64,000 nt of DNA from an uncultured Alphaproteobacteria bacterium (GCA_963840055.1 CAWIXM010000045.1:79971-143970), one strand, 5' to 3'; numbered from the stretch's first letter, positions 5,064 through 52,966 are shown. The notes: a model not told the origin generated them from the letters alone. Numbers and translations: made by a program.

Positions 5064-5627
5064 ATGTCCATCGCCGGTTGGATCGTGCTTGGGCTGATCG
5101 TCGTCGTCGTGTTGTGGGCCGTCATGACCTACAACGGGCTTATTTCGCTGCGGCAACGGGTGAACCAGGCCTTCGCCGACATCGATGTGCAGCTCAAGCA
5201 GCGGCACGACCTCATTCCCAATCTGGTCGAGACGGTAAAGGGCTATGCGAGCCATGAGCGCGGAACGCTGGAGGCTGTCGTCCAGGCACGCAACGCGGCG
5301 ATCTCGGCGCAGGGCCCGGCCGCGCAGGCCGCCGCGGAAAACCAGCTCACCGGCGCGCTGCGCCAGCTGTTCGCGCTGTCCGAGGCCTATCCCGACCTCA
5401 AGGCCAACACCAATTTCCAACAACTGCAGTCCGAACTGTCGGACATCGAGAACAAGCTCGCCGCCGCGCGTCGCTTCTTCAACAACACGGTGAGCGAGTA
5501 CAACGCGAGCATTCAGCAGTTCCCGGCGGCGCTGTTCGCCGGCCCGCTCGGGTTCCGCGAGCACCAGTTCTTCGACGTCGGCGACGAGCGCAAGACGCTC
5601 GAACAAGCGCCGCAGGTGAAGTTCTGA
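5064..5627 (+). CDS. LemA family protein
   Basis: N-terminal TM helix followed by YNGLISLRQRVNQAFADIDVQLKQRHDLIPNLVETVKGYASHE, a typical LemA sequence, at the expected length of 187 aa. Confidence 0.9.
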   Translation: MSIAGWIVLGLIVVVVLWAVMTYNGLISLRQRVNQAFADIDVQLKQRHDLIPNLVETVKGYASHERGTLEAVVQARNAAISAQGPAAQAAAENQLTGALRQLFALSEAYPDLKANTNFQQLQSELSDIENKLAAARRFFNNTVSEYNASIQQFPAALFAGPLGFREHQFFDVGDERKTLEQAPQVKF

Positions 5628-5691
5628 TGTTTGCCCCAACGGCTGCGCGCGGCCGTCTTGCCCCGGCTTCGGCGCACCGCTCCGGCGCCGG

Positions 5692-6910
5692 TCAGGCGGT
5701 GGCGACGAGCCCGGCTGTTGGTCGCGCCGCCGCGCTGTCGGGAAAGACGGCCGTCTCAAGGTCCCCGTCGGAAACGCGCAGGTGATCGCGGAGCACGCCC
5801 TTCATCACCGCGCGCAGATCGGTCGTCGGCCGTAGATCGCGCCCCTCATACAGTTTGTCTGCCGAAAGCCCCGGCCAATCGGCAATAACTTGACCGCCCT
5901 TCACCGCACCGCCGGCAAGCAGCGCCACCGTCGCGGTGCCGTGGTCGGTGCCGTCCGTTTCGTTGATGCGCGCGGTGCGGCCGAACTCCGTCACCACCGC
6001 GACCACCGTGTCGCGCCAGGCTTCCCCCATTCCTGTTTCGACCGCGGCAATCGCGCCATCGAGCGCGCCGAGGAGCGCGGCCAGGCGTCCGCTTGCTGCG
6101 CCTTCATTGGCGTGAGTGTCCCAGCCGTCGAAGGCAAGCGCGCCAATGCGGGGCCCGTCGGGGCGCGCGAGGAACTTGGCGGCAGCGCCGGCCGACTCAA
6201 GGAACCGCGCCGCCCCCACCCGGCATAGCCGACATATCGCCGTCCTTGGCGATGGCCGCAACGCCGATGCGCTCTTCAAGCGAGCGCGCCAAGTCCGGAT
6301 CGGTATGGCGATACAGATCGAGAAGCCGCGCCACGGTGCCATCGGCGGCGGGCGGCAGGCGCGGCGGCGTCCACGACAGGATCTGCGCTTTGCCACGCAC
6401 GACCAGCGGCGTCGCCGGTCCGACGGCGAATGTCGCGCGCCCTTGCGCGGCGACCGGCTCGTCGCGCGCGAGCGTCGCTAGCGCGCGATTAAGCCAGCCG
6501 CTGCCGGTCTGGCCGGGCTTCGCAAAGCCGCTCTCGAGCACGTCCTGCCCATCGAAATGCGACCGCTCCCGGTAAGGCGTGGCGACGGCGTGCACGATCG
6601 TCGCTTGCTTCGCTTTGTAGAGGCGGTGCAGATTCGGCATCGCAGGATTGAGGGCGAAGAAGCTGTCGAGCGCGAGGCCTGGACTGGCGCCGTCGAGTAT
6701 AAGCGCCTTGTCGCCGCGCAGCCGCACCCAACCCGGATCGCCCACCGGCGCGACCGCGGCAAGCCCGTCGAGCGCGCCGCGCAGCACGATTACGAGAAAG
6801 CGCGGATCGCGCCGCTCGGCCCGTGCAAGCTTTGGCAGATAGGCCCACGCAAACAGGACGCCGGAAGCGAGCAGCATTTCACGGCGGGTCGGAGCATGAA
6901 GAGAGCGCAT
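5692..6910 (-). pseudogene. DUF1501 domain protein (Tat-signal sulfatase-like fold), frame broken in a C5 run at 6213-6217 (ORFs 6197..6910 and 5692..6396)
   Basis: The N-terminal part has a Tat-like leader (TRREMLLASGVLFAWAY). The C-terminal part carries the DUF1501 hallmarks FDGWDTHANEG and TEFGRTARINETDGTDHG. The two frames join at PGGG/AARFLES, for about 406 aa in total. Confidence 0.8.
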
Positions 6911-6918
6911 GGCTTCAC

Positions 6919-7248
6919 CTACGTTGGAATTCCGGCGACATGAGAAGGAGCGTCATCGCGCGCGGCGCGTCGTGCCGCCCGTCTCTCCTGCCTGAACTCG
7001 AACGCGGCGCGCCCTGCTTCGCCACTTGTCAAAAGATGGGGATCCAATAACCGGCCAGTGGCCGGCCGGTCGAGCTCGGCGAGCAGCGCTCCGCGCGGGT
7101 CTGTTGCAATCGCAGCAATGCCGTCAGACCGCGGTCCGAAGCCGAAGCGGTGGAGCATCAATGCTGCATGGGTGTTGGGGTCGATTGCCATCGAAGGCCT
7201 CCGGCCTTCATCCGCCTGTCGCAAAAGCGAACCAATCGCCCCGCGCAA
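6919..7248 (-). pseudogene. DUF1800 family protein, N-terminal fragment only (about 90 of the roughly 450-500 aa expected)
   Basis: The likely start is the ATG at 7191 (MAIDPNTHAALMLHRFGFGPRSDG...), a typical DUF1800 N-terminus. The ORF stops 9 nt before the DUF1501 start, so the bulk of the gene is missing. Confidence 0.6.
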
Positions 7249-8540: not shown

Positions 8541-8662
8541 CGAATTCCGTTCCAATCGAATCGGAATTCGCTCCGGTTGTCCCTGAGTGGTCGCATTTTC
8601 TGCGGCGAACCGGTTCCCACCCCGGATCAAGTCCGGGGCAGGCTTCGCCGGAAAATGCTCTA
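8539..8662 (+). repeat. MITE-like palindromic intergenic element, copy A
   Basis: The same sequence recurs at 44013..44139 in the same orientation and at 26805..26905 inverted and internally deleted. Module 1 is the palindrome GCGAATTCCG...CGGAATTCGC. Module 2 is the long stem GCATTTTC-GCGAA / TTCGCC-GAAAATGC capped by CCCCGGATCAAGTCCGGGG. Confidence 0.85.
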
Positions 8663-8665
8663 AGT

Positions 8666-10241
8666 CTAGTCGACGATGCCCAGACTTTCCCGCAGTCTGA
8701 GAACTTGCGGTCGGAGGCGCTCACAGGCGAGATCGCGCTCGAAACGCAGCACGTCCTTGCGTACAGGGCTCGCGCGCAGACGGACGAGCGTTTCCCGGTC
8801 CTGCTGGCAAGGATCTGAGGAGCGGCTCGATGCGGCTTTCTTGCTGTCCTGTTTCGGCTGCGGGGTGCTTTCGATCGCATTGCTCTGCGGCGTGCGACCT
8901 CCGTCGTCGCCTTCGATCGGCACCGCGGGTGCGACCGCAGCCGCGCCGGTCCCCGGCAGTTCGCCGACAACACTCTCGCGTAGGCGCACGACCTGCAGCC
9001 GAAGCCGCTCGCAGGTAAGCTCCCGCTCCAGATGAATGATCTCGTCCCGCACCGGCTTGGCGCGCAGCCGCGTAAGCTTTTCCTGTTCCTGTTTGCACGA
9101 ATCGACGGCGATGGCCGAAGCGGCGGAACCTGGGGAGGACTCGTGGACATCCTCGGTCGGCTTGGGCTCGAGCTTTGCCTGTTGGTCCTTTTGCGGCGGC
9201 GCCCTGGGCGTTGAATCGCTGTCGTCGCGATTTTGCGGGTCGCGCGAAGCGATGACCGGCGGCAACGCTTTCTCCGCGGTCTCATTGAGCTTGGCGAGTT
9301 GCGCCCGAGCGAGGCCGGCGTAATAGCCAGTGCTGTGCACCTGCAGAAACGACTCCCAGGCCTGCTGCGTGCCGATGCGTTCGGCAAACTCGTAATCCCG
9401 GATATCGTATCTCGAAGCGCTCGAGCCCATCCTCCCCGATGCGATAGCCGGCGGATCGGGGGCCTTGACCAGCGCGATCGTCGTTCCGCCCAGCGAGCCG
9501 TAAACGAATGGCTCCTGTCGGTTCGCGGTCATTTTCAAGACTTCGTCGCGGACTCGGCCCAATGCGATCCTGATGTCGAGGCCGGGTTCGAAGAGGTGTT
9601 TTATCAGCGCCGTGGTGAACGGGCTGTTCGGACCGACGCCATCATAGGAAACGGAGCCCGCCTTTGCCGCGTAGGCGATAAGCGTATTGCCGGCACTGGG
9701 TTCGACCGTGGCAAGGCCGCCAGTCACCGCCCGCACCGCAAGCGTGCGCTGCATCCTGCGAAGGAAGGGATTGTCGCGGCACGCGTCCAGAATGATCAGG
9801 CGCAGCTGCTTGACCGGCTCCACGGCCAGAATGAGGCGTTCGAGCGAGATCGCTTCATCGTCGGCGTCGTAGTCGCTCCGAAGCTTTGCATCCACCGGAA
9901 TGAGATAATTGGAGCCGCGAATCTCGATGCCATGCCCGGCGAAATACACCACTGCGATGTCGGCATCGTGCGCCGTGAACATGAATTCCCGAAGCGCCCG
10001 CTTGAACTCCACCACGCCAAGATCGGTGCGCGAACTCGACGACGTCGAACCCGGCTTTTTCCAACATACGCGCCATCGCCTTCGCATCGCTGACGGTGTT
10101 CGTCAGACTGGAGGCGTTCTGATAGGCCGCATTGCCGATCACGAGCGCAACGCGCCGTTCGGCCAGGGCGTTTGTCGCCGAAATGGCGACGAACGCCAAG
10201 CCGGCCAGCGCGGCCGCTATGGAGATAAGGCGTCGTCGCAT
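8666..10241 (-). pseudogene. exported caspase-family (peptidase C14) protein, frame broken near 10028-10036 (ORFs 9855..10253 and 8666..10087)
   Basis: The ATG at 10241 follows GGAGG. The signal peptide is MRRRLISIAAALAGLAFVAISA. The catalytic His lies in YFAGHG and the catalytic Cys in LDACRDNPF. The two frames join at MLEKAGFDVVE / RTDLGVVEFK. The C-terminus has two 42-aa Cys-containing repeats. Confidence 0.8.
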
Positions 10242-10268
10242 CCTTGCCTCCAAGTACCCTCCTCCTCG

Positions 10269-11186
10269 TTAGCGATGCCGCCTGCTTCTCCGCGACCGCG
10301 GCCTGCGACCGTCTTCCGTCACCGTCACCGTGATCGGCTTGGACATGACCGGCGGATCATGCGGCACATGGTGTTCGTCACCGAGCAGGAGCTGCAGCGT
10401 ATGCACGCCCAATGGGAGCGTAACTTTCGCCTCCGTTTGTCCTGCACCGAAATGCAGATGGTTGAAGTCATTCGGAATAGGTTGGTCGAGCGGGGGCACC
10501 GGAGTGTCGATCAAAAGATGGTGATGCCCGGTATTGGGCTTTGCCACCCCGGCCGGCGCAACGCCCATACCGACCAAGCCGAACCGGATGATCGGCGTCC
10601 GCGAAACATAACCTCCGTTGAGCGGATAAACGAAATAAACCTTCGCATTCGCGGGAGACGGATGTCGTTGCGCCGCCGGCGGCGCCGAAGCGGTTGCGGG
10701 AGGCGATCCTTCCTCGACAACCCGGACATGAATCTTCGGCGAGTAAAGAGGCGGGGAATGCGGGATGTGATCCTTATCCGCGAATAGCAGCTGCAGGGTG
10801 TGCTCGCCCGGCGTCAGCGTCACCTCAGCTTCGGTCTGCCCCGCGCCGAAATGCAGGTGGTTGAAGTCGTTTGGGATGGGTTGGTCGAGCGGCGGTAATT
10901 CGGTGTCGATCAGCAGATGATGGTGACCGGAATTGGCCCGGTTTGACCCGGCCGGCGCGACGCCCATCCCGTGCAGGCCAAAATGAATGGTGGCTTTCGT
11001 CGGAATCGTGGCTCCGTCCTTGAGGTCGATGAAATAGACCCCGGCGCCCGGCGGCGATGCCACCGGACCTCCCGTCGCGCGATCCTGAGCGTGAACCGCG
11101 CCGCAAGCCGCGCCCAAAGCCACCATGACCAACAGCATCAAATTTCGCAGCACGAGCTTGATCCTCCAGAGAGTGCACCGCACCAT
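10269..11186 (-). CDS. periplasmic protein with two tandem DUF4399 domains
   Basis: The block GHHHLLIDT..PPLDQPIPNDFNHLHFGAGQTEA.VTL occurs twice. There is an N-terminal signal-like segment LMLLVMVALGAACGAVHA. The start codon is uncertain. Confidence 0.8.
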   Translation of the reverse strand: MVRCTLWRIKLVLRNLMLLVMVALGAACGAVHAQDRATGGPVASPPGAGVYFIDLKDGATIPTKATIHFGLHGMGVAPAGSNRANSGHHHLLIDTELPPLDQPIPNDFNHLHFGAGQTEAEVTLTPGEHTLQLLFADKDHIPHSPPLYSPKIHVRVVEEGSPPATASAPPAAQRHPSPANAKVYFVYPLNGGYVSRTPIIRFGLVGMGVAPAGVAKPNTGHHHLLIDTPVPPLDQPIPNDFNHLHFGAGQTEAKVTLPLGVHTLQLLLGDEHHVPHDPPVMSKPITVTVTEDGRRPRSRRSRRHR

Positions 11187-11488
11187 CGTTTCGATTCAAT
11201 CTGATCGAATTAATTCGTAGTTGTCGGTGACCTACATCTCACACCATCAACTAGTGTCGCATTCCCTGGATTGCGACAAAAGGGGTGAGGATGCGATTGA
11301 TTATTGTCCGACTTTCCCATCGTGCATAGGATGCACGCAGACAAAGGCGCGGTTCATCGAATAGGCGACATTGTCGCGGATTGACGTGGGTGTTCCAAAC
11401 CTCCGCAAGCGCTGCGCCGCATCGGCAGCTTCTGGGCTCTCGCACGTGTAATTTTCTCGCCCATCGGCGAGCGAACAGGAAGCAGAAA

Positions 11489-13120
11489 ATGAAGTGGCGC
11501 CTGGCACTTCTCCTTCTTTTGATTGTCGGCGCAACGACCAACCTGGGGTTGGCGCAGGCCCAGCAACCCGCGGCGGCCGTTCGGCCGGAGCCGCGGATGG
11601 CTTTGCTCATCGCCAATTCCAACTATCGCGATTCCGATGTGAAGTTGCCCAATCCGGTCAGGGACGCCCGCGCGCTTGCCGAAGAACTGCGGCGCGACGG
11701 CTTCGAGGTGGTGCTCAAAGAAAATCTCGGCAAGGAAGATATGCAGCGAACAATCGACCAGTTCGCGGCCACGATCCCGTCCGGCGCGACGGCATTATTT
11801 TATTTTAGCGGGTTCGGCATTCAGATCAATCGCCAGAATTTTCTTATCCCGACCGACGCGAGAATTTGGTCCGAACGGGACGTGCAACAGGATGAAGTCA
11901 GCGTCGAGCGGATTCTCGGTCAAATTCACGCGAAGGGCGTGAAAGCAATGCTGCTGATTATCGACGCCTCGCGCAAGAACCCGTTCGAGCGACGCTTTCG
12001 CAGCTATTCCGCAGGACTGTCGGCGACGGCCGTTCCCGAGCGCACGGTCGCGATCAGCAGCGCCTCCCTCGACAAGGCGCACGATGACGTCGATGCCAAT
12101 CCAAGTTTGTTCATGGACGAACTGTTGAAAGAGATTCGCTCGCCCAGGTCGGCCACGGCCGAGCAGACCTTTCTGCGCGCCCGCAACGGCGTGGCGCGTG
12201 CGTCAAAGGGTGACCGCGTGCCGTGGATATCGTCGTCCTTGACCGAGGATTTCTATTTCAACCGGCCGAGCGCCGCCGCGTCGACGTCGCCTCCGCCGGC
12301 CGAACCGCTGCCCGCGCGCAAGGCCGAACAGCCCGCTCCGGCCGCTTCGGCGGCGGCGGAGCCGGCGCAGGCGACGCAGGCGACGCAGGCGAGCGGCAAC
12401 ATGCCCGGCGAGACCTTCCGCGATTGCGCCGAATGTCCGCAAATGATCGTCATCCCGGCGGGCGAGTTTGAGATGGGCTCGAACGATACTCCGAGGGAGA
12501 AGCCCGTCCACCGCGTCGGTATCGCGCGCCCGATCGCGATCGGCCGTCGGGAGGTCACGTTTGCGGAATGGGACCAGTGCGTCGCCGCGGGGGCCTGCAG
12601 CTATCGACCAAATGATCGGGGCTGGGGACGAGCCAATCGGCCGGTTATCGATGTCAGCTGGGACGACGCCAAGACATACATCAACTGGCTATCGAAAAAG
12701 ACGGGAAAGCAGTATCGGCTGCCGACGGAAGCCGAGTGGGAATACGCAGCGCGCGCCGGTACTAAATCACCATTCTGGTGGGGACGCGACACGGGGAAAG
12801 GGCTCGCCAACTGCCATGACTGCGGCGCGCCTGACGGTGGATCGAAAACCGCGGCGGCTGGATCGTTCCGGCCCAATGCCTTCGGCTTGTACGATACCGC
12901 CGGCAACGCCGCCGAATGGGTGGAGGACTGCTGGAACGATTCTTATCGCGGCGCCCCGAAAGACGGCTCGGCCTGGACCACCGGTCAATGCGGACTTCGC
13001 GTGCTGCGCGGCGGCTCATTCGGCAACAAGGCAGATGCGGTCCGTTCGCCGGCCCGCTTTCGCTATGACAGGGACGTGCGGTATTTCGCCAATGGTTTTC
13101 GCGTCGCGCGCGACTTGTGA
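11489..13120 (+). CDS. exported pseudo-caspase (C14-like, catalytic His replaced by Phe and Cys by Ser) fused to an FGE-sulfatase/SUMF1-like domain
   Basis: The ATG at 11489 follows AGGAAG, and the signal peptide is MKWRLALLLLLIVGATTNLGLAQA. FYFSGFGIQ aligns with YFAGHGIE of the neighbouring caspase, and IIDASRKNPF aligns with ILDACRDNPF. The C-terminal domain reads AGEFEMGS...RLPTEAEWEYAAR...RGGSF. Confidence 0.8.
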   Translation: MKWRLALLLLLIVGATTNLGLAQAQQPAAAVRPEPRMALLIANSNYRDSDVKLPNPVRDARALAEELRRDGFEVVLKENLGKEDMQRTIDQFAATIPSGATALFYFSGFGIQINRQNFLIPTDARIWSERDVQQDEVSVERILGQIHAKGVKAMLLIIDASRKNPFERRFRSYSAGLSATAVPERTVAISSASLDKAHDDVDANPSLFMDELLKEIRSPRSATAEQTFLRARNGVARASKGDRVPWISSSLTEDFYFNRPSAAASTSPPPAEPLPARKAEQPAPAASAAAEPAQATQATQASGNMPGETFRDCAECPQMIVIPAGEFEMGSNDTPREKPVHRVGIARPIAIGRREVTFAEWDQCVAAGACSYRPNDRGWGRANRPVIDVSWDDAKTYINWLSKKTGKQYRLPTEAEWEYAARAGTKSPFWWGRDTGKGLANCHDCGAPDGGSKTAAAGSFRPNAFGLYDTAGNAAEWVEDCWNDSYRGAPKDGSAWTTGQCGLRVLRGGSFGNKADAVRSPARFRYDRDVRYFANGFRVARDL

Positions 13121-15289: not shown

Positions 15290-16517
15290 CGCCCATTCAA
15301 CAGTGAAGTGCAACGGGCAGATTTCTGGCGCTGAAGAAAATCTCGCGAGGGGTTTGGTAGCCGAGTATCTTTCTGGGGCGAGAGTTGAGTTTGTCCTCGA
15401 CCCTTTGGACATCGGCATCGGACAAAATAGAGAAGTCGGAACCTTTTGGGAAGTACTGCCTGAAGAGGCCGTTAGTGTGTTCGTTGAGGCCGCGTTCCCA
15501 CGAGTGATAGGGCTTGGCAAAATAGGATAGTGCCCCCAGCGAGGTTGCGATTTGGGCGTGAGAGGCGAACTCTTTTCCATTGTCGTAAGTGATTGTTTCG
15601 ATTTGGTCAGCGAGCGGCAAAAGCACGCGTGCGCAGGCCTGCACGACAGAGTCCGCGTTCTTGTCCGGCAGTTTGGCGAGCTTGGTGTATTTGGAGGTTC
15701 GCTCGACGTGCGACATGACAACGCCTTTGTGATTGGCGCCGATAATCGTGTCGGCCTCCCAGTCTCCGATGCGGATTTTTGCGGCGACAATAGGAGGCCG
15801 CTGATCGATATCGACGCGGTTCGGAATCAGCCCGCGCCCCGAATTCTTGCCCTTGCGCCTGTTGTATTTTTTGCCGCTGTGACGCAAGTGAAGATACAGC
15901 GTGCCCCCGTCTTTCTTGTCTTTCCAGACATGCTGATAGATGCGCTCGTGACTGATAAAGGCGACGCCATCCTTCGCCAGACGCCCGCTGATCTGATCGG
16001 GACTCCACTGCTGTTGCGTCAGTTTTTCTTCGATCAGCTCCACCAAATCTGGCGTTATTTTGCGCGGCTTGTCCGAGGCCTCTTGGCGTCTCTGCGAGGC
16101 CTTCTCGTGCGCTTGCTTGAAGCGATAGCCGCGCGCGCCGGTGTTGCGAACAAGCTCGCGGCTGATCGTCGACGGATCGACGCCAATTTGCCGCGCGATG
16201 TGGGCTTGCGAGTGGCCGCTTTGCAAGAGCGCGTAAATCTGGCAGCGTTGTTCGCAGGTCAGATGGAGATAGCCTTCGGGCATTTTTCCTCCGTGAGATG
16301 TGCTGTCCCACGCAAGGATAGTCTTCCATCTGACCGCCAGAAAAACCGGCATACACAACATGGCAAAGTCTGGCGGGAGAAAACGTCGGCCTCAAGGGTG
16401 CTCGCTGCGCTCGCATCGTCTCCGGCGACTAAAGCCCTTGACCCCGACCCTTTCCCCCGCCACTCACTCCGCCATGCCGTCTATGCTGCCCTGTTGCACT
16501 TCGGATTTGAAACGGCG
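15290..16517 (-). mobile_element. IS30-family insertion sequence, 1,228 bp, flanked by a 3-bp CAA direct repeat
   Basis: The terminal inverted repeats are CGCCCATTCAACAGTGAAGTGCAAC-GGGCAG (15290..15320) and the reverse complement of 16486..16517, CGCCGTTTCAAATCCGAAGTGCAACAGGGCAG. By hand they match at 25 of 31 positions with one gap. CAA occurs at 15287-15289 and at 16518-16520. GC content is visibly lower than in the flanks. Confidence 0.8.
15297..16283 (-). CDS. IS30 family transposase
   Basis: The ATG at 16283 follows GGAGGA. An N-terminal HTH (CEQRCQIYALLQSGHSQAHIARQIGVDPSTISRE) is followed by a DDE core (WEADTI, ITYDNGKEF, SWERGLNEHTNGL). The stop codon lies inside the right IR. Confidence 0.92.
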   Translation of the reverse strand: MPEGYLHLTCEQRCQIYALLQSGHSQAHIARQIGVDPSTISRELVRNTGARGYRFKQAHEKASQRRQEASDKPRKITPDLVELIEEKLTQQQWSPDQISGRLAKDGVAFISHERIYQHVWKDKKDGGTLYLHLRHSGKKYNRRKGKNSGRGLIPNRVDIDQRPPIVAAKIRIGDWEADTIIGANHKGVVMSHVERTSKYTKLAKLPDKNADSVVQACARVLLPLADQIETITYDNGKEFASHAQIATSLGALSYFAKPYHSWERGLNEHTNGLFRQYFPKGSDFSILSDADVQRVEDKLNSRPRKILGYQTPREIFFSARNLPVALHC

Positions 16518-23899: not shown

Positions 23900-24830
23900 T
23901 TATTGCTTAAAGCCATAGTACCGCATAGCAGCTTCGGTTAGCACGCTTGTGGCTACAGCAATTCCCACTTTCCACGTCCCGTCCGCTGCCTTTCCAATAT
24001 TTTTGGCGATCCATGCTTTCGCTCTCTTTCCAAATGGCTCCGTCTTACTCTCCGGTTCCTCCGAAACAACAATGCGGGACAATTCTTCTGCATCTGACTT
24101 CGCGATGCCTGCTACTACTAGCGCCTCAATAAATGCGTTGCCGTCGCCCTCTGATACATTTACTCGGATTATCGCGCTGTCGCCCGTATTTGAAATACTC
24201 GTATAATTGCCATGAATAATCTGCTGAGTTATTTGAGTCACTTTCTCTCCGTCTGCTGCGGGCGGCACAGCGACAGGTGGCGGCCCAAGTGTGATTTCAG
24301 CCGCCGCAGGCAGTGTCTTTTCAATTTGAATTGTTAATTCAAGCACTCTAGTGCGAACAGCGTTCTGCAATTCGGTCAGCGCAGCCTTTGAAACAATTCC
24401 AACAACGCTATTACAGGCGTAATCCTCATATACCTTACCCTGCAGCAATAAGATTAGATTAGAAGCCTCTATCTGTAGCGTTCCGCCGTTTTCCTTATCT
24501 CCGGCAACCAAGTCATCAATAGCCGCCACGCTTTGCCTTATCTCGTACTGCGTCCAATGTTTCCCAGCAAATTTTTCAATGAGATACGGCGATCGGAGCA
24601 TTACTTATTCCAGAGCCAAATGGGCCGGAAAAGGTACCTTTATAGGAAACGCCTATCTTCCGATAACTTGGAACCTCGACATCGTTAGGATATCCTTCTA
24701 ACTCGTGCTTTACCCACTCTTCGAGCACAACGCTACCAAGTCGAGAAGCGAGAAAACGAAGCTTGAGCAGAATTGGACCAATTTCACGGCCTTCCAACAG
24801 AGAAGACTGGATTTCTCGAAGCAGGCTCAC
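23900..24830 (-). pseudogene. AbiTii-domain protein (abortive-infection-like), frame broken near 24579-24598 (ORFs 24576..24830 and 23900..24601)
   Basis: The N-terminus SLLREIQSSLLEG..IGPILLKLRFLASRLGS..LEEWVKHELEGYP...VPSYRKI...GPFGSGISNAPI matches my recollection of the AbiTii N-terminal domain. GC content is clearly lower than in the surrounding genes. Confidence 0.6.
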
Positions 24831-24923
24831 AGGTGCACCCGTTCATATGGTACATAATAGCGAATCGCCCGCACCATACAACCATATCGAGCGCCATTTA
24901 TCGAATTAGTCGCTCGGTTCGCT

Positions 24924-25001
24924 CTACCGCACCAGCTCCCGCATCGCCTTGTCCAACCCCTCCAGGGTCAACGGATACATGCGTCCGGCCATCAGCTGGC
25001 G
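24924..25001 (-). repeat. relic second copy of the last 25 codons plus stop of the vWA gene
   Basis: Encodes RQLMAGRMYPLTLEGLDKAMRELVR-stop, identical in protein to 25549..25626. The DNA differs at 10 of 78 positions, and all differences within sense codons are synonymous. Confidence 0.9.
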
Positions 25002-25018
25002 TCCTACAGATGCTCGCT

Positions 25019-25309
25019 TTATGCGGCCGCTTCAACCTTGGCGGTGAACGGCACGGCGGCGACTACCGCATCTTCCGCCTGCTCGCAAAAAACAGGATCG
25101 GACCTCAACTCGTCGATGGTTCGTGGAATAGGAAAGCTTTCGCCGGTTAGCCTAGACCAATCCTCGGCCGCGAACTCCAAGACTTCAACCGCGTTTTGCA
25201 TCGCCTCGTCGATCGTGTCCCCAGCCGTGATGACCCCGGGGATGTCAGGAAAAGAGACGCCGTAACAGCTGTCACGATCTTTATGGATCAGCGCAATGTA
25301 GTACGGCAT
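25019..25309 (-). CDS. hicB: type II antitoxin HicB
   Basis: Starts MPYYIALIHKDRDSCYGVSFPDIPGVITAGDTIDEAMQNAVEVLEF, a typical HicB N-terminal domain. It lies directly downstream of hicA. Confidence 0.88.
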   Translation of the reverse strand: MPYYIALIHKDRDSCYGVSFPDIPGVITAGDTIDEAMQNAVEVLEFAAEDWSRLTGESFPIPRTIDELRSDPVFCEQAEDAVVAAVPFTAKVEAAA

Positions 25310-25320
25310 CGTATCTCCAA

Positions 25321-25515
25321 TCAGTCTTTCGGCCAGTGCGCTTGTCGGTAGATAGACCGAATTGTACCCCAGGGAATATCCTTACGCGGATGAGGAACCG
25401 TTACGACCAATCTTGATATGGGGTGTACGAATTTATGGTGCGATCCCTTCACCGCCACCAATTCGAAGCCGTCCCGCCGCAGCCGCGCGATGATGTCACG
25501 GCTGTCCCGCAACAT
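25321..25515 (-). CDS. hicA: type II toxin HicA (mRNA interferase)
   Basis: 64 aa. Contains RDIIARLRRDGFELVAVKGSHHKFVHP....VTVPHP.KDIPWGTIRSIYRQA. Confidence 0.9.
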   Translation of the reverse strand: MLRDSRDIIARLRRDGFELVAVKGSHHKFVHPISRLVVTVPHPRKDIPWGTIRSIYRQAHWPKD

Positions 25516-25548
25516 TGAAGGGCCTCCCTCAACTCACCGCCGACGTCC

Positions 25549-26724
25549 TCACCTCACCAGTTCCCGCATCGCCTTATCCAAGCCCTCCAGGGTCAGCGGG
25601 TACATGCGTCCGGCCATGAGCTGGCGCACCATCTTGATCGACTGGGTGTAGCCCCAGTGCTCCTCGGGAAGCGGGTTGAGCCACACGCAGGCGGGATAGG
25701 TGCGGGCCACGCGGTCGAGCCACACCTGCCCCGCCTCTTCGTTTATGTGCTCGACCGAGCCGCCCGGCACGACGATCTCATAGGGGCTCATGGAGGCGTC
25801 GCCGATGAAGATCACCTTGTAGTCGTGCGGATAGGTGTGCAGCACGTCCCAGGTCGGCGTGGTGTGGTCCCAGCGGCGGCGGTTCTCCTTCCACACCTTC
25901 TCGTACAGGCAGTTGTGGAAGTAGAAATATTCGAGATGCTTGAATTCGAGCCGGGCGGCGGAGAACAGCTCCTCGGTGAGCTTGATGTGCCAGTCCATCG
26001 AGCCGCCGACGTCGAAGAAGGCGAGCACCCTCACCGCGTTGTGCCGCTCCGGGCGCAGCTTGATGTCGAGATAGCCCTTGTGCGCCGTCTCCTTGATGGT
26101 GCCGTCGAGATCGAGTTCCTCCGGCGCGCCGGTGCGGGCGAACTTGCGCAACCTCCGCAGCGCGATCTTGATGTTGCGGGTGCCGAGCTCGACGTCGCCG
26201 TCGAGGTCCTTGAACTCGCGCTTGTCCCACACCTTCACCGCGCGGAAATTGCGGTTCTTGTCCTGGCCGATGCGGATGCCTTCCGGATTGTAGCCGTAGG
26301 CGCCGTAGGGCGAGGTGCCGCCGGTGCCGATCCATTTCGAGCCGCCGTGATGGGCGCCCTTCTGCTCGGCCAGCCGCTTCATGAACTCCTCGATGAGCTT
26401 GTCGAGCCCGCCCATCGCCTCGATCTGCTGCTTCTCCTCCTCGGTGAGATACTTCTCCGCGAGCTTCTTCAGCCACTCGGCGGGGATCTCGACGGTGACC
26501 GCCTCGCTCATCAGGTCGAGGCCCTTGAACACATGGCCGAACACGCGGTCGAACTTGTCGAGATTGCGCTCGTCCTTTACCAGCGTCGCGCGCGCGAGGT
26601 AGTAGAAGTCCTCGACCCGGCGCGAGGCGAGATCGGCCTCCATCGCCTCCATCAGCGTCAGGTACTCGCGCAGCGTCACCGGCAGGCCGGCGCTTTTGAG
26701 CTCATGAAAGAAGGTGACGAACAT
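25549..26724 (-). CDS. VWA domain-containing protein (CoxE-like)
   Basis: The ATG at 26724 follows GGAGAG. It starts MFVTFFHELKSAGLPVTLREYLTLMEAMEADL, has a VWA core (VLAFFDVGGSMD) and is 391 aa long. No MoxR-type ATPase gene is adjacent. Confidence 0.8.
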   Translation of the reverse strand: MFVTFFHELKSAGLPVTLREYLTLMEAMEADLASRRVEDFYYLARATLVKDERNLDKFDRVFGHVFKGLDLMSEAVTVEIPAEWLKKLAEKYLTEEEKQQIEAMGGLDKLIEEFMKRLAEQKGAHHGGSKWIGTGGTSPYGAYGYNPEGIRIGQDKNRNFRAVKVWDKREFKDLDGDVELGTRNIKIALRRLRKFARTGAPEELDLDGTIKETAHKGYLDIKLRPERHNAVRVLAFFDVGGSMDWHIKLTEELFSAARLEFKHLEYFYFHNCLYEKVWKENRRRWDHTTPTWDVLHTYPHDYKVIFIGDASMSPYEIVVPGGSVEHINEEAGQVWLDRVARTYPACVWLNPLPEEHWGYTQSIKMVRQLMAGRMYPLTLEGLDKAMRELVR

Positions 26725-44012: not shown

Positions 44013-44139
44013 AGAGCGAATTCCGTTCCGGTGGAATCGGAATTCGCTCTCATTATCCTTTAATGGTCGCATTTTCTGCGGCGAACCGGTTCCCACCCCG
44101 GATCAAGTCCGGGGCAGGCTTCGCCGGAAAATGCTCTAG
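44013..44139 (+). repeat. MITE-like palindromic element, copy C (full length)
   Basis: Collinear with copy A. The ends CTAGAGCGAATTCCG and, on the reverse complement, CTAGAGCATTTTCCG form an imperfect terminal inverted repeat matching at 12 of 15 positions. TA/CTAG is present at both junctions. Confidence 0.85.
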
Positions 44140-52086: not shown

Positions 52087-52857
52087 TCACGCGAACCTTG
52101 CGCGCGCAAGTAAGTCTGTTCGGTCAAGTCTATGTAGCGCGTCGATGATGCCCGTGGCGAGGCTGCCCGGCCCGCGAGCCGTCTCGGCCGCTATCTCGCC
52201 GGCAATGGACAGCGCGAGCACCCCGGTTCCCGTCGCCCGCCAAGGGTCGGGCTCCACCGCGAGGCAGGCCGCGACCAAACCCGCGCCGGCGCAGCCCATG
52301 GCAGTGACCAACGACATCCACGGATGGCCATTGGCGATGCGGATCGACTTCGCGCCATCGGTGACAAGATCGGTTTCTCCCGTCAGCGCGATCACTGCTC
52401 CGACGTCCCTCGCATAGCGAGCGGCGGCCGTCGCAGTGGCGCGGCTCGCAGCGATGGTCAGGAACTCACGATCATTGAGATGCATGGCTGTCGGCCGCAT
52501 ACGCACAAGCGCCTCGGCGAAAATGGCGCGTCCTTGCGAGCGGTCGATAAACACCGGGTCGAAAATCCAGCGCACGCCCAGTTCACTCGCCTTGTCGATC
52601 GCGATCCCGATCGCCTCACGGCGTGAGGCGTCGAGCGTTCCGAGATTGACAAGCATTGCGTCGGCGCCTCTGACGAAATCGGCGACCTCGTCGGGCGCGA
52701 TGGTCATCGTCGGCATGGCGCCAACCGCCAACAGTATATTGGCGGTGAACGTCTGCGCGACCGCGTTGGTGACGCAATGCACGCGTGGGCGGAGCTGGCG
52801 CAAGCGTCCAAGAATGTCGGCGGCGATTAACGGAAATTCGCCTTCCGGCGCACGCAT
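52087..52857 (-). CDS. thiM: hydroxyethylthiazole kinase
   Basis: Contains VHCVTNAVAQTFTANILLAVGAMPTM and GMGCAGAGLVAACLAV-type motifs. It lies downstream of a TPP riboswitch and upstream of thiD. Confidence 0.9.
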   Translation of the reverse strand: MRAPEGEFPLIAADILGRLRQLRPRVHCVTNAVAQTFTANILLAVGAMPTMTIAPDEVADFVRGADAMLVNLGTLDASRREAIGIAIDKASELGVRWIFDPVFIDRSQGRAIFAEALVRMRPTAMHLNDREFLTIAASRATATAAARYARDVGAVIALTGETDLVTDGAKSIRIANGHPWMSLVTAMGCAGAGLVAACLAVEPDPWRATGTGVLALSIAGEIAAETARGPGSLATGIIDALHRLDRTDLLARARFA

Positions 52858-52861
52858 CTCA

Positions 52862-52966
52862 AACTCCCTTCGCCGGCATGACCCGGATCAGGTTCGACGG
52901 GTTGGCCAAAGCCTCTCAGCCCGACGGCGAATTCCGTCGGACACCCCGTTGAGATCGCCCGTGAAA
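52862..52966 (-). promoter_or_regulatory. TPP (THI-box) riboswitch
   Basis: The minus strand reads CGGGGTGTCCGACGGAATTCGCCGTCGGGCTGAGAGGCTTTGGCCAACCCGTCGAACCTGATCCGGGTCATGCCGGCGAAGGGAG. This contains the conserved GGGGTG, CTGAGA, ACCTGATC-GG-T-ATGCC-GCG and AGGGA elements. The 3' GGGAG doubles as the thiM Shine-Dalgarno sequence. Confidence 0.9.

Follow-up and report, generated by a model that had tools for sequence, protein, structure and literature searches.

In a 64,000-nt stretch of DNA from an uncultured alphaproteobacterium (GCA_963840055.1 CAWIXM010000045.1:79971-143970; hereafter, the window), three adjacent genes located between positions 8666 and 13120 form one conserved, selected, and exported periplasmic module of soil and marsh alphaproteobacteria. 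The constant core of the module is a PvdO-like domain with the fold of the formylglycine-generating enzyme (FGE), together with a DUF4399 protein, and not the pair of active and dead caspases that flanks the DUF4399 gene. The first-pass annotation, made from the window sequence, had centered on the caspase pair. The domains it assigned (Peptidase_C14, two copies of DUF4399, and Peptidase_C14 joined to FGE-sulfatase) were all confirmed with Pfam, and the genes are as follows.

8666 to 10241, minus strand: Peptidase_C14 caspase gene, present in the window as two halves, 8666 to 10087 and 9855 to 10253 (Pfam, six-frame open reading frames)
10269 to 11186, minus strand: tandem DUF4399 gene (Pfam, two domains, E value of 2.2e-73)
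11489 (ATG; open reading frame from 11381) to 13120, plus strand, divergent: Peptidase_C14 + FGE-sulfatase fusion gene (Pfam, E values of 2.8e-31 and 2.8e-54)

Metagenome contigs were scanned with motifs of the dead caspase domain only, and the resulting loci were annotated with our own hidden Markov models, which makes the count less biased. Fusion loci with at least 1 kb of upstream sequence were considered evaluable (n = 17). A divergent DUF4399 gene was located directly upstream in 14 of them, compared to none of the 31 loci encoding pseudo-caspases without the FGE-like domain (Fisher p = 1.4e-9). An active caspase gene was present in the flanks of 2 of the 17 evaluable loci and absent from 12 of the 14 loci linked to DUF4399. 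Thus, DUF4399, initially taken for a bystander, is the constant partner of the FGE-like domain. The dead/active caspase pair, in turn, could not be upheld as a conserved feature, since most loci of the pseudo-C14–FGE fusion lack an active caspase within 8 kb and two related loci (L170 and L171) lack the dead domain.

Close orthologues (72 to 78% identity) keep the arrangement seen in the window, with the DUF4399 and caspase genes on one strand and the divergent fusion gene on the other, along with all surrounding genes (M48 peptidase, HWE kinase, and CreA). Because the whole neighborhood is syntenic, linkage in the window clade alone proves little. Fusions at ~54% identity (L084 to L087) are found in another neighborhood, with the DUF4399 gene divergent directly upstream and no active caspase within 8 kb. 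Look-ups starting from caspases at 78, 57, and 51% identity revealed a DUF4399 gene and an FGE gene every time, in two cases in unrelated flanks. At 57 and 51% (L170 and L171), the DUF4399 gene is followed by the active C14 gene, facing a divergent gene for an FGE-only protein that has a signal peptide and no caspase domain. When look-ups started from DUF4399, an FGE gene was adjacent in four of four cases and a C14 gene in three of four.

Further architectures were detected in more distant loci. L173/174 has a new gene order, in which an active C14 gene adjoins two successive DUF4399 genes followed by a C14-FGE fusion with HA at the positions of the catalytic His and Cys. A C14-FGE fusion with HS is encoded in L172, and in Burkholderia sp. 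SRS-46 (L004), DUF4399 accompanies a C14-FGE fusion whose HC dyad is intact. In a gammaproteobacterial metagenome-assembled genome (MAG), an FGE gene adjoins a gene for an SH3-DUF4399 protein. In Bradyrhizobium sp. Arg816 (L007, 8990 to 11124), a cytoplasmic adenylate/guanylate cyclase is joined through one transmembrane helix and a Pro/Ser/Ala linker to the FGE-like domain, and a single-domain DUF4399 gene follows. A genome scan with the full-length fusion alignment picked FGE-domain patterns, and the matches listed were mostly unrelated FGE proteins; it served only as the source of L001, L002, L004, and L007 and for a negative background. Among the matches listed, DUF4399 accompanies the FGE proteins that are closest to that of the window (L002, L004, and L007), while about 70 more distant FGE proteins had no DUF4399 beside them.

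Active and dead C14 genes occur together in the window, in six relatives (L081 to L083, L088, L089, and L168), and in L173/174. Another active/dead pair was seen in L117 (3495 to 7199) and L118 (3496 to 7200), where an FGE-less pseudo-C14 gene (YS) is immediately preceded, on its own strand, by an active C14 gene (HC). The linkage of the three gene families required by the first-pass annotation thus extends across genomes, including lineages with other gene orders and other flanks. Since the association holds in 14 of 17 versus 0 of 31 loci and in distant lineages, the conserved association is that between the FGE-like domain and DUF4399, with C14 as a recurrent but variable third part. The C14 component is interchangeable: it can be separate and active, fused and dead, both at once (as in the window), fused and active, or, in one relative, replaced by a membrane cyclase.

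All three proteins have a positively charged N terminus, a hydrophobic core, and an AxA-type cleavage site. The signal peptides, read directly from the sequence, are MRRRLISIAAALAGLAFVAISATNALA/ER, ...MLLVMVALGAACGAVHA/QD, and MKWRLALLLLLIVGATTNLGLAQA/QQ, the last one belonging to the fusion protein. The ratio of nonsynonymous to synonymous substitution rates (dN/dS) is 0.11 to 0.16 for the pseudo-C14 domain (four pairwise comparisons), 0.07 to 0.085 for the FGE-like domain, 0.07 to 0.22 for DUF4399, 0.06 to 0.12 for the active C14 domain, and 0.4 to 0.9 for the linker of the fusion. Every domain, the dead one included, is under purifying selection, and the dead domain is not decaying. Near relatives carry database names of Rhodoplanes sp. 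or Xanthobacteraceae MAGs, and sequences near-identical to the window are present in salt-marsh and soil metagenomes.

The fusion protein is composed of the following parts.

11489 to 11560, plus strand: signal peptide MKWRLALLLLLIVGATTNLGLAQA (direct reading; N terminus conserved in homologues)
11594 to 12274, plus strand: pseudo-orthocaspase p20 domain, residues 36 to 262 (PF00656, E value of 2.8e-31)
12275 to 12403, plus strand: Pro/Ala-rich flexible linker of low conservation (dN/dS of 0.4 to 0.9, no predicted secondary structure)
12404 to 13120, plus strand: PvdO-like FGE-fold domain (PF03781 over its full length, E value of 2.8e-54)

In a phmmer alignment with MALT1, FYFSGFGI of the fusion is paired with YYAGHGY and IIDASRK with LLDMCRK. 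The substitutions of His by Phe109 (codon 11813 to 11815) and of Cys by Ser161 (codon 11969 to 11971) are located exactly at the dyad positions, as originally proposed. Direct BLASTP comparison with the C14 domain of the neighboring caspase (33% identity) agrees with this placement. The two C14 domains, described at first as paralogous, are indeed related, but only distantly. None of the best 120 fusion homologues has a full dyad (YA in 64, YS in 30, FS in 13, FA in 5, and a few others). Remoter fusions keep His and have lost Cys (HS in L172, HA in L173/174), and the single Burkholderia fusion (L004) retains both, so that the dyad states across fusions look like a stepwise loss of catalysis. 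Although Cys is lost, an Asp two positions ahead of its site and the NPFERRFR loop that follows do not vary. The dead domain is 50 to 52% identical to FGE-less pseudo-caspases compared to 33% to its active neighbor and therefore groups with the Rhizobiales pseudo-orthocaspase clade; by this comparison, it is an old, family-wide pseudo-orthocaspase and not a recent duplicate of the neighboring gene. An AlphaFold2 (AF2) model of the fusion protein was too poor [mean predicted local distance difference test (pLDDT) of 54.7] and was neither submitted to Foldseek nor used for any conclusion.

The best relative of known structure for the FGE-like domain is PvdO (5hha, E value of 1.8e-53; ~47% identity), while FGE structures match with E values of about 1e-15 to 1e-16. 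The RGGSF motif is followed by GNKADAVRSPARFRYD / GNKADAVRSPARFRYDRDVRYFANGFRVARDL, with no Cys at the sites where FGE has two copper-binding cysteines. Cysteines are equally absent after RGGSF in 21 aligned homologues. The early reading that the catalytic cysteines of FGE are missing was therefore correct, and judged by its residues, the domain cannot be a formylglycine-generating enzyme. It contains eight invariant cysteines in four close pairs (C313/C316, C364/C370, C442/C445, and C481/C501). With the NCBIfam PvdO equivalog model NF051459, it scores 214.8 bits, which is below the cut-off of 500. No pyoverdine genes (pvdM, pvdN, or pvdP) are located nearby, the neighbors being genes for an M48 peptidase, a DUF1501 protein, an HWE kinase, CreA, and a transposase. 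In purified PvdO, neither a cofactor nor activity could be detected (PMC6206403). Tsi3 uses the FGE fold in the periplasm as a scaffold for binding proteins (bioRxiv 10.1101/2021.05.21.445229), and in conflict systems the fold binds ligands (PMC7159879). Because the FGE active site is missing, purified PvdO is inactive and cofactor-free, the related folds bind, and in L007 the domain is positioned as the periplasmic part of a membrane cyclase, we infer that it is probably a noncatalytic binding or sensor domain; the L007 protein lends support to the binding or sensor role that had been guessed for it at first.

The DUF4399 gene matches PF14347 with 243 bits (gathering cut-off of 28) over two domains and starts at 11186 or at an internal ATG at 11138. 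Each domain of ~100 residues has eight invariant His (in GHHH, NHxH, HTLQ, and HxPH) as well as invariant Asp, Asn, and Gln. In the family alignment, there are one to five tandem copies, and Arg174 is invariant in the otherwise variable linker that precedes the last domain. The C-terminal tail is basic in the window protein and often in the family, but not universally (L175). An AF2 model (pLDDT of 76.7) contains two beta-sandwiches of the fibronectin type III (FN3)/immunoglobulin type, with the HHH and HxH motifs on strands. Given the invariant His residues and the modeled beta-sandwich fold, DUF4399 is a probable metal-binding protein. Foldseek of the model returned generic FN3 tandem matches only and no functional homologue, a sequence search of the PDB with DUF4399 found nothing, and Pfam at E values of up to 10 revealed no further family in a single DUF4399 domain. 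The family has almost no literature, and the papers found that mention DUF4399 do not deal with its function. A lipoprotein signal (GAAC) was considered and rejected, the Cys being Thr in the homologue P0221.

PF00656 matches both halves of the caspase gene (E values of 2.4e-21 and 1.9e-09), which jointly cover profile positions 1 to 225 of 233. The encoded protein aligns with the MALT1 paracaspase in phmmer (E value of 4e-11), VYFAGHGI with YYAGHGY and ILDACRD with LLDMCRK, so that both dyad positions are kept, in agreement with the initial reading. The catalytic codons are 9934 to 9932 for His and 9781 to 9779 for Cys (minus strand), and both residues are invariant in eight homologues. The gene is predicted to encode an exported orthocaspase-type C14 protease with an intact His/Cys dyad that would cleave after basic residues. 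Besides the signal peptide and the p20 domain, it encodes a helical motif (DYEFAERIGTQQAWESFL..YYAGLARAQLAKL) and, at the C terminus, two repeats with two cysteines each. The start at ATG 10241 is consistent with the N termini of orthologues, which are intact proteins of 520 to 549 amino acids; the longest open reading frame begins at TTG 10253. A twin-arginine (Tat) signal (MRRRL) was rejected, as the RR is not kept in orthologues. Two features of the gene are listed below.

8972 to 9097 and 8684 to 8809 (approximate), minus strand: C-terminal repeats of ~42 residues each, C-x(28)-C
10033 to 10034, minus strand: single-base insertion, TT versus T in relatives, which splits the caspase frame in the window only

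The repeats have the form CxxDxExLxRLRAxPxRDxVxRFERELxCERLRPQVxRLRES and are kept by the caspases encoded in L170, L171, and L175, as they are by proteins from Roseiarcus and Rhodoplanes. They have no Pfam family, and at E values of up to 10, Pfam revealed no further family in the C-terminal 263 residues of the caspase.

In the DNA alignment at the insertion, the window has GAGTTCG, compared to GAG-TCG in three orthologous loci. The extra base is also absent from contigs of four independent metagenome runs (X1 to X4, at least 99% identical to the window) and from a metatranscriptome contig of a ~90% relative (X21). In L089, whose adjacent pseudo-C14 segment is 100% identical to that of the window, the C14 frame is uninterrupted (5092 to 6690), and an intact caspase protein at 97% identity is available (P0241). 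The frameshift is thus real in the window sequence but not fixed, and in the population at large the caspase gene appears to be intact, as all five independent datasets and all orthologues lack the extra base. This is in line with the first-pass annotation, whose proposal would have failed with a fixed frameshift. A second indel was found in the DUF1501 gene (5692 to 6910, minus strand), where all four public runs have 11 bases (AATATCTGCGC) after position 6203. Their lack in the window splits the gene into two overlapping open reading frames. At least two private frame-breaking indels within 4 kb (10033 and 6203) point to an assembly error or private mutation and not to a dead module.

The stop of the DUF4399 gene is located 15 nt before the longest caspase open reading frame (TTG 10253) and 27 nt before the favored ATG 10241, and because of this short gap the two genes are probably co-transcribed. 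Contigs of a leaf-litter metatranscriptome from a relative ~90 to 92% identical span all three genes, and one crosses the DUF4399/caspase junction. They provide weak evidence of transcription and co-transcription, DNA carry-over being possible. One feature of the divergent intergenic region should be mentioned.

11304 to 11333, plus strand: promoter-like block TTGTCC-17 nt-TAGGAT, ~155 nt 5′ of the fusion ATG

The block is invariant in six orthologous loci with variable flanks and is followed by a partly conserved leader of ~155 nt, up to 11488; a simple promoter scan did not call it. A riboswitch in the leader was considered and dropped: there was no Rfam family, RNAalifold covariation was too small, and an RNA structure was unsupported. 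PADLOC returned a generic caspase match only, and filing the module as a known defense system was rejected for this reason.

The explanation that we favor, with a probability of about 45%, is a periplasmic module in which an FGE-fold sensor works with DUF4399 and a caspase fold serves as output or adaptor. The FGE-fold domain would recognize DUF4399 or a cargo of DUF4399, most plausibly a metal ion held by the invariant His residues, with DUF4399 acting as a co-receptor or as the carrier of the ligand. The variable domain fused to the FGE-fold domain or encoded beside it would be the output: in the window clade, periplasmic Arg/Lys-directed proteolysis by the orthocaspase. The dead caspase domain may provide a docking, adaptor, or regulatory surface. 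Several points weigh against this explanation. DUF4399 is absent nearby in 3 of the 17 evaluable fusion loci (L092, L104, and L125) and in L001 from the genome scan, and it also occurs in other contexts, e.g., in a gene cluster of Phaeobacter, where a DoxX protein is its neighbor. The sensor idea leans largely on one cyclase fusion (L007). Being ~47% identical to PvdO, which is genetically linked to an oxidation, the FGE-like domain could be an enzyme or an enzyme partner. Finally, the interaction, ligand, metal, and substrate roles are all ones that we infer, the metal binding of DUF4399 from its His residues and modeled fold.

The original proposal, a pair of the caspase-8/cFLIP kind, can be put as follows: the dead domain of the fusion heterodimerizes with the active orthocaspase and switches the protease in response to a ligand of the FGE domain, with DUF4399 as an accessory. 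A dead caspase fold beside an active one is indeed common to both systems, and dead and active C14 genes are adjacent in two lineages of different gene order (the window clade and L173/174), with a further FGE-less active/dead pair in L117/118. The dead domain is constrained, keeping the Asp before the lost Cys and the adjoining loop, and among solved structures both C14 domains most resemble MALT1, which is activated by dimerization. In contrast to caspase-8/cFLIP, the genes are bacterial, the products are predicted to be periplasmic, the two C14 domains are only 33% identical, and most of the family lacks the pairing. No active caspase is encoded in the 8-kb flanks of most fusion loci (L084 to L087, L105/106, and others), while L170 and L171 pair the active caspase with an FGE protein devoid of a caspase domain. 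Such a heterodimer is possible in the window clade but cannot be general, and we consider this explanation of the module unlikely.

Equally to be weighed is a maturation pathway, in which DUF4399 is a His-rich metalloprotein client made as a tandem precursor, the PvdO-like domain assists in its oxidation or metal loading, the orthocaspase cleaves it after Arg, and the dead caspase only holds it. Orthocaspases cleave after basic residues, and the cuts envisaged are at the invariant linker Arg before the last DUF4399 domain or in the basic tail. The eight invariant His per DUF4399 domain, the invariant Arg174, and the often basic tail suit a client of this kind, except that the tail is not basic in all members (L175). 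The DUF4399 and caspase genes are probably co-transcribed, as judged from the 15- to 27-nt gap and the RNA contig spanning the junction. The dead caspase domain stands alone at most loci, however, so cleavage is not essential. PvdO is a near relative of the FGE-like domain (E value of 1.8e-53; 214.8 bits with the PvdO model). PvdP is a copper tyrosinase. PvdO always co-occurs with this periplasmic enzyme and may need partners (PMC6206403). In the FGE-like domain, however, no cofactor site was identified, and its connection by a membrane helix to a cytoplasmic cyclase in L007 suits a sensor better than a maturase. We regard the maturation pathway as doubtful.

That the three genes share no function, being chance or ancestral neighbors with dead and frameshifted caspases in decay, would fit the wholly syntenic neighborhood of the window clade (M48 peptidase, HWE kinase, and CreA) and the caspase frameshift and 11-bp deletion in the nearby DUF1501 gene, but it is very improbable, chance linkage being essentially excluded by linkage that survives rearrangement and unrelated flanks, by the specificity of the DUF4399 association for the FGE-bearing subfamily (p = 1.4e-9), by dN/dS of 0.06 to 0.22 in all domains, and by the absence of the frameshift from five other datasets.

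The explanation by an FGE-fold sensor acting with DUF4399 can be extended to a widespread and modular periplasmic signaling system of Hyphomicrobiales and some other proteobacteria. An FGE-fold receptor would read the state of a His-rich, metal-binding DUF4399 co-receptor, and the outputs would be interchangeable (proteolysis by the orthocaspase, a dead caspase acting as adaptor or inhibitor, or synthesis of cyclic nucleotides), with the dead caspase gating the active one by heterodimerization in the window clade. We hold this full version to be quite improbable. If true, the pair in the window clade would be a bacterial periplasmic counterpart of caspase-8/cFLIP.

Other features of the window were noted. 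In the short intergenic region toward which the M48 peptidase and caspase genes converge (8545 to 8660), there is an inverted repeat, GCGAATTCCG..CGGAATTCGC then ..CCGGATCAAGTCCGGGGCAGGCTTCGCCGGAAAA, of which an exact 34-nt second copy is located at 44098 to 44131. In metagenome assemblies, its word depth exceeds that of the flanks by a factor of hundreds to thousands, and it looks like a dispersed element of the repetitive extragenic palindrome/miniature inverted-repeat transposable element (REP/MITE) type common in these communities. A 109-amino acid open reading frame at 6919 to 7248 (minus strand) has a DUF1800-like N terminus (HRFGFGPR), ends at the DUF1501 start, and has no Pfam match. 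L083 and L168 have a DUF1800 gene of 487 to 497 amino acids at this place, and the window seems short by about 1.2 kb; public contigs agree with the window. An IS30-type transposase gene (HTH_38, HTH_32, and rve) is located past CreA at 15297 to 16361 (minus strand), with none there in L081, L083, and L168. A thiamine pyrophosphate (TPP) riboswitch was found at 52846 to 52958 (minus strand; 63.8 bits, gathering score of 54.3). The region from 24001 to 26000, with a GC content of 0.54 compared to about 0.65 elsewhere and the most negative GC skew of the window, is possibly foreign DNA.

Parts of the module resemble systems described before. Pseudo-orthocaspases in which the p20 dyad is YS, YA, or FS, concentrated in Rhizobiales (Hyphomicrobiales), were described in silico by Klemencic et al. 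in 2019 and presumed to be nonproteolytic (PMC6426788). The C14 domain of the fusion resembles them, being 50 to 52% identical and having a substituted dyad. The YS and YA forms of that study have long C termini without identifiable domains, the FS forms have tetratricopeptide repeats, and DUF4399 is unmentioned (PMC6426788). Here, in contrast, a PvdO-like FGE fold is attached to the FS, YS, and YA domains, which are exported and tied to DUF4399. The metacaspase|FGE-sulfatase architecture was recorded in 33 of 671 prokaryotic caspase homologues, at least one of which (Trichodesmium) is dyad-negative (Asplund-Samuelsson et al. 2012, PMC3501461). The order of the two domains is the same as in the window fusion; that entry is a catalog only, without neighborhoods, and FGE-sulfatase was taken there as a sulfatase-modifying enzyme (PMC3501461). 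Thus, the architecture has been known since 2012 and pseudo-orthocaspases since 2019, and neither study connects them with DUF4399, with export, or with a modular neighborhood.

The FGE-like domain shares with PvdO (5hha) a periplasmic location, the FGE fold, and the absence of the FGE catalytic cysteines. It differs from PvdO in scoring below the equivalog cut-off, in having no pyoverdine genes nearby, in two extra invariant Cys pairs (CVAAGAC and NCxxC), and in its partner, which is DUF4399 and not PvdP. In FGS conflict systems (PMC7159879) and in Tsi3, the FGE fold is likewise a nonenzymatic C-terminal binding module, with variable partners that include caspases. Tsi3 is periplasmic and acts by protein-protein binding (bioRxiv 10.1101/2021.05.21.445229), whereas the constant partner here is DUF4399. 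Neither next to the module in the window nor in the related loci examined were there any vWA-MoxR, STAND NTPase/GTPase, or diversity-generating retroelement (DGR) genes. The conflict systems are cytoplasmic or membrane-proximal, whereas signal peptides are present in all three proteins here. Type VI secretion system (T6SS) genes (vgrG/tse3-type) were likewise not found next to the module or in the related neighborhoods examined, the sole toxin-type gene seen being a Tlde1_dom gene ~7 kb away in L085/86. By its predicted composition, the module is not an FGE, a PvdO, a Tsi3-type immunity locus, or an NTPase-centered conflict system.

Caspase homologues abound in bacteria, and about one in eleven is catalytically dead (PMC6426788). 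To our knowledge, none of the dead ones has a demonstrated function. The module provides a concrete, testable context for such proteins, with a fixed partner domain, a fixed partner protein, and natural variants. It also gives a first hint at the function of DUF4399 and, for PvdO-like proteins, a second context in which they depend on a partner. Each of three homologue searches returned more than 5000 proteins at the E-value threshold, and the family is very large in soil metagenomes. Because of this size, a function, if found, would be widely applicable.

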